Of a stretch of 9,828 nt of DNA, positions 5,176 through 5,808 are shown in pieces. A program made the translations under genes and the position numbers. Origin of the DNA: a virus (taxonomy: Duplodnaviria; Heunggongvirae; Uroviricota; Caudoviricetes); IMG/VR virus record IMGVR_UViG_2537562191_000038, positions 1-9,828 of that record; one strand, given 5' to 3'. Each line of letters begins with the position of its first letter. The stretch's first letter is position 1. The notes below the pieces were generated by a model. It made no database searches, had not been told where the DNA came from, and saw nothing but the letters and a program-made list of their open reading frames with translations.

Positions 5176-5808
5176 TTAAGCCTTGTTAACAGAGACTTGA
5201 GCGGCTTTTATGGATAGATTCCCGCTGGCCTCTATCGCCATACTTCCCCCCGCCTTCAGGGCGACATCCGCGCCTGACTTTATATCGAGATTTCCTGCGG
5301 AAGAGATGAATGCCGGACCTTGAGAAATGGCATATAACTCCCCGGCCTCGTTGAACCCGATTGTTGTTCCACTTTTCAAGTGCGTAACGGCCCAGGCTCC
5401 GCCCGCCGTCCGGACCTCCATTAGTCCGTTCCGCGACGAAATAAAGTCTTTTTTGGCGCTGGTTGATGGTTGTGCTGGTGCACCTTCGACTTCAGGCGGT
5501 ACATAGCCTTCACCTTGTCCTGACGCTTCAGGCGGCACATTGGGAGCGCCACCGGATGCATCCTGTGCATAACCGATTATCAATGGCCATCGCGAATCTC
5601 CATTGTAGGGGAATTCTACCCATACTTTATCGCCGGGCAGAAATGGTGAAAATGTGTTTGCATTGGACAATATGGCTTCTGCCCACGGCAATGAGGCATC
5701 TGGTAGCCCATCCATCATGCCGACAACGCGTATTTGCGTACGCATCAGACCTTTAGGGTCATCGACGCTTACCACTACAGCCCGATACTTCCCTGTCAAA
5801 CTACCCAT
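5176..5808 (-). CDS. Phage baseplate central-spike-like protein (gpV / gp5-type N-terminal OB-fold), 210 aa
   Basis: N-terminal region [25 protein letters not shown]...LPWAEAIL...[25 protein letters not shown] fits the recalled gpV/gp45/VgrG-gp5 pattern (hydrophobic strand-D-x-x-G-R-x-RV ... W ... P-x-x-GD/E-x-V-x-V-x-F ... G-D ... P-x-I-x-G). This is followed by a Pro/Gly/Ala-rich linker and a C-terminal Gly/Ser/Ala-rich region that looks beta-strand-like. AGGAG sits 6 nt upstream of the ATG. Assignment is by pattern recognition, not a search. Confidence 0.5.

Follow-up and report, generated by a model that had tools for sequence, protein, structure and literature searches.

The open reading frame at positions 5,176 to 5,808 of the window (i.e., the entire 9,828-nucleotide stretch of viral DNA analysed here) was assigned, with a probability of roughly 97%, to gene 5 of an E. 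coli phage-plasmid of the P1 type (Punavirus); its product (gp5) is the trimeric central spike of the baseplate. A tblastn search against phage genomes aligned the encoded protein with P1 gp5 (NC_005856; YP_006545) over residues 1–210 at 98.6% identity. The two proteins are separated by three differences (V13I, V132I, and N208D), all of them conservative, and the P1 record annotates the match as gene 5, "baseplate". The same search retrieved relatives at 99–99.5% identity in P7, SJ46, RCS47, and JL22, and at 47% identity in D6. Queries with phmmer matched chain q of PDB entry 9vzk ("Gp5", 210 aa) at E=7e-136, and among protein families of phages the product was placed in phrog_430 (E=1.9e-51). 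The trimeric state of the spike is taken from the cryo-EM work on P1 (PMC12810830; 10.1101/2025.07.21.665459). This spike is thus already known, its structure has been solved by cryo-EM, and it is neither novel nor unusual.

Genomic setting and signals of gene 5

The order of genes in the window is that of P1, namely a tRNA, ban (encoding a DnaB-like helicase), and dbn on the plus strand, and genes 25-7-24-6-5 on the minus strand (Table 1). When the window was compared with NC_005856 and with sibling plasmids, gene 5 emerged as the last gene of the late operon 26-25-7-24-6-5, convergent with dbn, while genes 24 and 7 and the remnant of gene 25 lie upstream of gene 6 in the same operon. The region between positions 4,000 and 8,700 was matched in 492 of 5,426 complete E. 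coli genomes, nearly always on plasmids of about 100 kb, the nearest matches being O111:H8 plasmids with 100% DNA identity. Colinearity with P1 and these plasmid matches together indicate that the window derives from a P1-type phage-plasmid. Compared with P1 itself, the element is a P1-like plasmid of the EHEC type in which an SPFH gene replaces tciABC and IS1203 is present in ban and in gene 25.

Table 1. Coordinates of the features of the window
Feature	Position	Strand	Basis
Hydrophobic membrane ORF, 78 aa	26–262	+
SPFH/Band-7 domain protein	243–1070	+	Pfam, E=1e-30
tRNA-Met, CAT anticodon	1098–1173	+	ARAGORN
IS1203-like (IS3-family) copy 1, in ban	about 2718–4027	-	comparison with intact sibling plasmid
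dbn	4131–5129	+
11-bp GC-rich hairpin between dbn (+) and gene 5 (-)	5150–5176	.	RNA folding
Gene 5 CDS, central baseplate spike protein gp5	5176–5808	-	ORF list, translation, homology
Triple-stranded beta-helix, about 11 octapeptide rungs, blunt end, residues 122–210	5179–5445	-	register, autocorrelation
Pro/Gly/Glu-rich connecting segment, residues 81–121	5446–5568	-	conservation, AF2, 9vzk_q chain
OB-fold domain (gpV / gp5 / VgrG type), residues 8–80	5569–5787	-	Pfam PF04717, AF2
Gene 6, trimeric baseplate hub (gp27 / VgrG-N-like)	5801–6817	-	9vzk_1, phrog_1390
AGGAG ribosome-binding site	5815–5819	-	read from sequence
Gene 24	6819–7604	-	colinear with P1 and intact sibling plasmids; PHROG tail family
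Gene 7	7591–8319	-	colinear with P1 and intact sibling plasmids; PHROG tail family
Gene 25, 3' remnant cut by IS1203	8323–8705	-	colinear with P1 and intact sibling plasmids; PHROG tail family
IS1203-like (IS3-family) copy 2, cuts gene 25	8706–9828 (window end)	+	comparison with intact sibling plasmid

The open reading frame list and its translations showed that the interval of gene 5 is spanned exactly by 210 codons running from ATG to TAA. A first-pass annotation of this DNA had pointed to the same interval; the frame is real, with 210 amino acids plus the TAA, and what had been left unstated is that it lies on the minus strand. The ribosome-binding site occupies positions -11 to -7 relative to the ATG, within the 3' end of gene 6, and the start of gene 5 overlaps the stop of gene 6 by 8 nt (ATG..TGA), an arrangement that points to translational coupling of the two genes. 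At the other end, the hairpin starts at the final base of the gene 5 stop codon and, on the plus strand, lies 3' of the convergent gene dbn. Its folding energy was -18.1 kcal/mol on the minus strand (z=-3.75) and -17.6 kcal/mol on the plus strand (z=-5.65), so it is probably a bidirectional intrinsic terminator. A consensus terminator scan did not pick up this hairpin, which direct RNA folding shows; we suspect that base-pairing of the T run within the stem hid it from the scan. The ribosome-binding site, the overlap with gene 6, the hairpin at the stop codon, and the recurrence of the surrounding region in E. coli together argue that gene 5 is a real gene and not a chance reading frame.

The product of gene 6 matched PDB 9vzk_1 ("Gp6") at E=5e-226 in addition to its PHROG family, and gave a weak match to a VgrG-related NCBIfam model. 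In public records, gp6 is labelled "tail length", "tail length tape measure protein", or "pttM", and in RefSeq E. coli plasmids gp5, gp6, gp24, gp7, and gp25 are called "hypothetical protein", which is also how gene 5 is mostly annotated in complete E. coli genomes. These public labels for gp5, gp6, gp24, gp7, and gp25 are out of date. For gene 24, the program-made frame (6819–7622, minus strand) begins at a TTG and has 267 aa, as compared with 261 aa (786 nt) for the P1/RefSeq product given in Table 1; the annotated gene overlaps the end of gene 7.

Regarding the remaining genes of the window, the SPFH gene and the hydrophobic frame that precedes it occupy the place of tciA-tciB-tciC in P1, a difference in the cargo region. 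The tRNA was called tRNA-Met, and its counterpart in P1 and the sibling plasmids is annotated as tRNA-Ile (ileX-like, needing lysidine modification). The product of dbn, a gene convergent with gene 5, showed a sub-threshold match to the C-terminal domain of GT1-family glycosyltransferases (PF00534, 25.0 bits versus a cut-off of 26.4), and its family, phrog_2518, has no assigned function.

Architecture of the spike protein

The fold of the gene 5 product was examined by AF2 prediction of a monomer (i.e., a single chain and not the trimer) from a diverse alignment of 25 sequences, which reached a pLDDT of 90.9 and a pTM of 0.73 and agreed with 9vzk_q at a TM of 0.87/0.88 and an rmsd of 2.5 Å over 207 columns. 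An earlier monomer model, built on a shallow alignment of close homologues, had a pLDDT of 48 and an unusable C-terminus, and its Foldseek matches to spikes were at TM <0.4. For the model from the diverse alignment, all Foldseek matches at E<1e-3 were central spikes; apart from 9vzk_q they were those of eCIS, VgrG, R2 pyocin, phiTE, and P2 gpV, and Mu gp45 narrowly missed this cut-off (E=1.5e-3). The protein had initially been read as spike-like, with a match to an unrelated fold named as the outcome that would speak against it; no such match was found at this threshold, and the spike reading stands.

The first-pass annotation had also assigned the N-terminal 75 residues to the OB fold of gpV and gp5, which agrees with our results. 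The Pfam model PF04717 (Phage_base_V OB domain) matched residues 8–80 over model positions 1–73 of 75 at E=1.1e-4, with a score of 22.9 bits, 0.9 bit short of the gathering threshold (23.8). The same model was matched at E<0.01 by 18 of 25 diverse gp5 homologues, the best of them at E=1.6e-13, and the structural matches to spikes point in the same direction. AF2 placed strands at residues 8–14, 24–28, 42–45, 61–65, and 76–80 (pLDDT 85–97), and this domain is the best-conserved part of the gp5 family.

Between the OB fold and the C-terminal helix there are only 41 residues, and no lysozyme family was matched by gp5 in Pfam or NCBIfam. Part of this segment had been described as a low-complexity Pro/Gly/Ala/Glu linker. 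The composition is indeed as described, since the stretch in question (residues 86–114) holds 7 P, 6 G, 4 A, and 4 E among its 29 residues (72% Pro/Gly/Ala/Glu), but the notion of a low-complexity spacer did not hold. Among P1-like homologues, a set that reaches down to 50% identity, G87, P89, N90, V91, P93, E94, A95, S96, G97, Q98, and G99 are invariant, as are P104, V107, G109, A110, P111, and P114. Further out, at 27–50% identity, a GxPN(L/V)PxEA consensus at the start of the segment persists across the family, conserved yet not invariant, and P111 is nearly invariant across the wider gp5 family. In column conservation and in occupancy, the segment does not fall below the beta-helix.

This composition would fit a two-domain protein on a flexible tether, such as an adhesin or an enzyme carrier, in place of a rigid needle, and the AF2 monomer from the shallow alignment gave a pLDDT of around 30 at the segment. 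However, the diverse alignment raised the block-mean pLDDT there to 74–91, both the sequence and the length of the segment are conserved across the family, the deposited chain 9vzk_q contains 207 of the 210 residues, and no adhesin or enzyme family was matched in Pfam, NCBIfam, or the PDB. We therefore rejected the flexibly tethered adhesin or enzyme, a reading that is very improbable in view of the ordered, conserved segment and the lack of a match to any such family. Family conservation, the pLDDT values, and the completeness of 9vzk_q show that the segment is an ordered connector and not a floppy spacer within the spike.

The conserved connector could in principle do more than connect. Residues 86–121 might act as a specific latch by which the spike docks to, or is released from, gp6 or the tape-measure protein, or might contact a host factor in the periplasm, and the T4 spike has been cited as contacting the periplasmic chaperone PpiD. 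We found no discussion of residues 86–121 or their contacts in the P1 papers cited here, and we consider such a role improbable; if true, the latch would control the timing with which the spike leaves the tube.

The C-terminal part had been noted as a Gly/Ser/Ala-rich region of about 90 residues, and this observation proved accurate: residues 115–210 contain 16 A, 13 S, and 12 G, and the string that had been quoted from this region corresponds to residues 172–207. Residues 123 to 210 fall into an 8-residue register of 11 rows, the last of which ends at the C-terminus. Autocorrelation of hydrophobic residues and of Gly peaked at a lag of 8, both in gp5 and in the family average, and close homologues differ in the helix by 8-residue indels. 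The 11 computed rows fit the 11 rungs reported by cryo-EM of P1.

The apex of spikes of the gpV/gp45 type binds metal. An apex domain with metal-coordinating His was looked for in gp5 and not found, as the protein has a single His (H143) and no HxH motif, and its rungs continue regularly to the stop codon. The absence of an obvious apex, which had already been remarked on in the first reading of the sequence, was thereby confirmed, the tip of P1 being formed by UpfC. A self-sufficient spike of the P2 gpV, Mu gp45, or R-pyocin type, bearing its own metal-binding apex and requiring no separate tip, would share the OB-fold N-terminus, and Foldseek did find the R2 pyocin spike, P2 gpV, and Mu gp45, but only at TM values of 0.32–0.39. 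Regular octapeptide rungs up to the stop codon, a single His that leaves no HxH motif, and the position of UpfC at the tip in the P1 cryo-EM structure all count against it; this reading has already been refuted by the P1 structure, and we regard it as practically untenable for the protein of the window.

In structures of VgrG with PAAR, it is chiefly backbone contacts that hold the PAAR protein on the blunt helix end. A missing PAAR-binding sequence signature is therefore to be expected in a spike such as gp5. No gene for a PAAR-family tip was present within the window. The suggestion that a separately encoded PAAR-like tip protein might lie outside it was correct, as P1 encodes UpfC at 64779–65063, about 9 kb from gene 5 (73704–74336). 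P1 UpfC scored 26.0 bits against the PAAR_motif model PF05488 (cut-off 27; E=1.1e-5). The sibling plasmid NZ_CP077576.1, the gene 5 region of which is 100% identical in DNA to that of the window, carries an intact upfC that is 98.9% identical to the P1 gene.

Relationship to other spikes and proposed mode of action

When 1.84 billion representative proteins were searched exhaustively with phmmer, 327 clusters were retrieved at E<=1e-3, of which 89 were at E<=1e-10. Most of these clusters are 200–300 aa long and aligned over their full length, so that spikes of 200–300 aa without a lysozyme domain form a large family. NCBIfam has no model for gp5. The initial view that the protein might be an unusual spike variant must accordingly be dropped, as it is a characterised protein that belongs with these many lysozyme-less spikes. 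A profile of 25 diverse members matched 9vzk_q (3e-74) and aligned continuously, through OB fold, connector, and helix, with residues ~380–585 of eCIS and T6SS spikes (9gtr_q at 3e-15, 9rce_F at 2e-13, as well as All3320, Afp8, and VgrG1).

The closest known system is P1 gp5 itself, with the same 210 aa, the same order of domains, and the same neighbours (dbn downstream, and gene 6 upstream overlapping its start). Its baseplate has been resolved by cryo-EM at 3.2 Å, revealing a trimeric gp6 hub and a spike complex of trimeric gp5 and monomeric UpfC that is "strikingly similar" to T4 gp5/gp5.4, but with a gp5 that has no lysozyme domain (PLoS Pathog 2026, PMC12810830). At its tip, the P1 spike also bears a "tripod" of UpfB (PMC12810830); the text of that paper anchors the tripod to "gp5.4", by which UpfC is presumably meant. 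In an independent preprint, the gp5 needle consists of 11 layers, each made of three beta-strands, with UpfC at its tip (bioRxiv 10.1101/2025.07.21.665459). Such a spike had been predicted earlier with HHpred, which matched P1 gp5 to residues 1–100 and 385–500 only of T4 gp5; gp5 had gone undetected in P1 virions by mass spectrometry, for which the authors gave low copy number as the reason, and deletion of upfC had caused no plaque defect (Gonzales et al. 2022, Viruses, PMC9024508). BLAST links just one P1 tail protein to T4, namely UpfC to gp5.4 (E=1e-8).

T4 gp5/gp5.4 and the P1-type spike have in common an N-terminal OB fold, an intertwined C-terminal beta-helix that repeats every 8 residues, a PAAR-like tip made of a distinct protein (gp5.4 and UpfC, respectively), and a gp27-like hub that is likewise a distinct protein (gp6 in P1). 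On the other hand, T4 gp5 has a lysozyme domain, situated where P1-type gp5 has its ordered connector, whereas P1-type gp5 has none, and the P1-type helix is far shorter (about 88 versus about 190 residues). P1 has, in addition, the UpfB tripod at the tip of the spike. In T4 gp5, the profile of the P1-type family matched no more than the beginning of the OB domain and fragments of the beta-helix.

VgrG and eCIS spikes (T6SS VgrG, Afp8, Pvc8, and the contractile injection systems of Streptomyces and Anabaena) match gp5 with their C-terminal half, have no lysozyme between OB fold and helix, and are capped by PAAR; among them, 9gtr_q gave the highest Foldseek TM (0.63). VgrG carries its gp27-like hub as an N-terminal fusion, whereas in the P1-type system the hub is a separate protein, gp6, and gp5 starts at the OB fold (residue 8). 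Given the profile alignment with the C-terminal halves of VgrG and the separate hub, gp6 and gp5 together correspond to a VgrG split into two proteins. The spikes of P2 (gpV), Mu (gp45), and R2 pyocin share with gp5 a trimeric spike of about 200 aa in which an OB fold is followed by a short beta-helix; their Pfam family is PF04717, for which gp5 of the window scores just below the gathering threshold. They differ in having an apex domain fused to the helix, as stated for the P2 spike in the literature, while the helix of P1 gp5 is blunt and its tip is provided in trans.

For P1, published cryo-EM shows three gp5 chains, tipped by UpfC, beneath three gp6 chains where the tube ends distally; the structural evidence thus comes from P1 itself, three residues away from the gp5 of the window. 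By extension, three chains of the window protein would make up the central spike of a contractile-tail baseplate, their three N-terminal OB domains docking under a trimeric gp6 hub. From the ordered Pro-rich segment, each chain would pass into a triangular beta-helix that is short (~11 eight-residue rungs) and intertwined, and a single PAAR-like UpfC, presumably encoded elsewhere on the element, would cap its blunt end. Upon contraction of the sheath, we infer by analogy with T4 and T6SS that the tube would drive the gp5(3)-UpfC needle through the outer membrane, after which the spike would leave the end of the tube so that DNA can pass. Peptidoglycan would be cleaved by Sit and not by gp5: the tape-measure protein Sit bears a lytic transglycosylase domain (PMC12810830), and lysis has been ascribed to this SLT domain (PMC9024508).

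IS1203 insertions and the state of this copy

Two IS1203-like copies, 99.7% identical to each other and in inverted orientation, interrupt the element. Copy 1 cuts ban about 100 nt before its stop codon, creating an artificial frame of 501 aa at 1448–2953, and copy 2 lies within gene 25, whereas sibling plasmids retain an intact gene 25 of 1218 nt and an intact dnaB/ban. The late promoter of P1, LP26, is located upstream of gene 26. With IS1203 inside gene 25, genes 7-24-6-5 are consequently now separated from the late promoter. As seen from these insertions, the element is probably defective and unable to make tails, and its gp5 may be unexpressed or unassembled, the operon being interrupted upstream. 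The inverted copies flank dbn and genes 5-6-24-7, and they could mediate inversion of this 4.7-kb segment.

Gene 5 may therefore be intact but at present out of use, on a phage-plasmid in decay, so that this copy would contribute no functional spike to virions. This concerns the state of the copy and not the identity of the protein. In favour of disuse are the two insertions, the intact state of both interrupted genes in sibling plasmids, the position of LP26, and a related O111:H8 plasmid in which upfB is broken by two IS91 copies. Against it, the gp5 coding sequence is undamaged, with 2 mismatches in 4681 nt relative to an intact sibling plasmid, so that any disruption or inactivation must be recent. 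We consider the two possibilities, a gene in use and a gene out of use, to be evenly balanced. In the O111:H8 plasmid NZ_CP077576.1, two IS91-family copies break upfB into three pieces (region 6452–11186); upfC is intact at 10905–11186, coordinates for which no CDS is listed.

The practical value of these results lies in corrected database labels (i.e., spike for gp5 and hub for gp6), and beyond annotation they add little otherwise. As regards the element itself, the window shows a P1-like plasmid of the EHEC type that has been eroded by IS elements.
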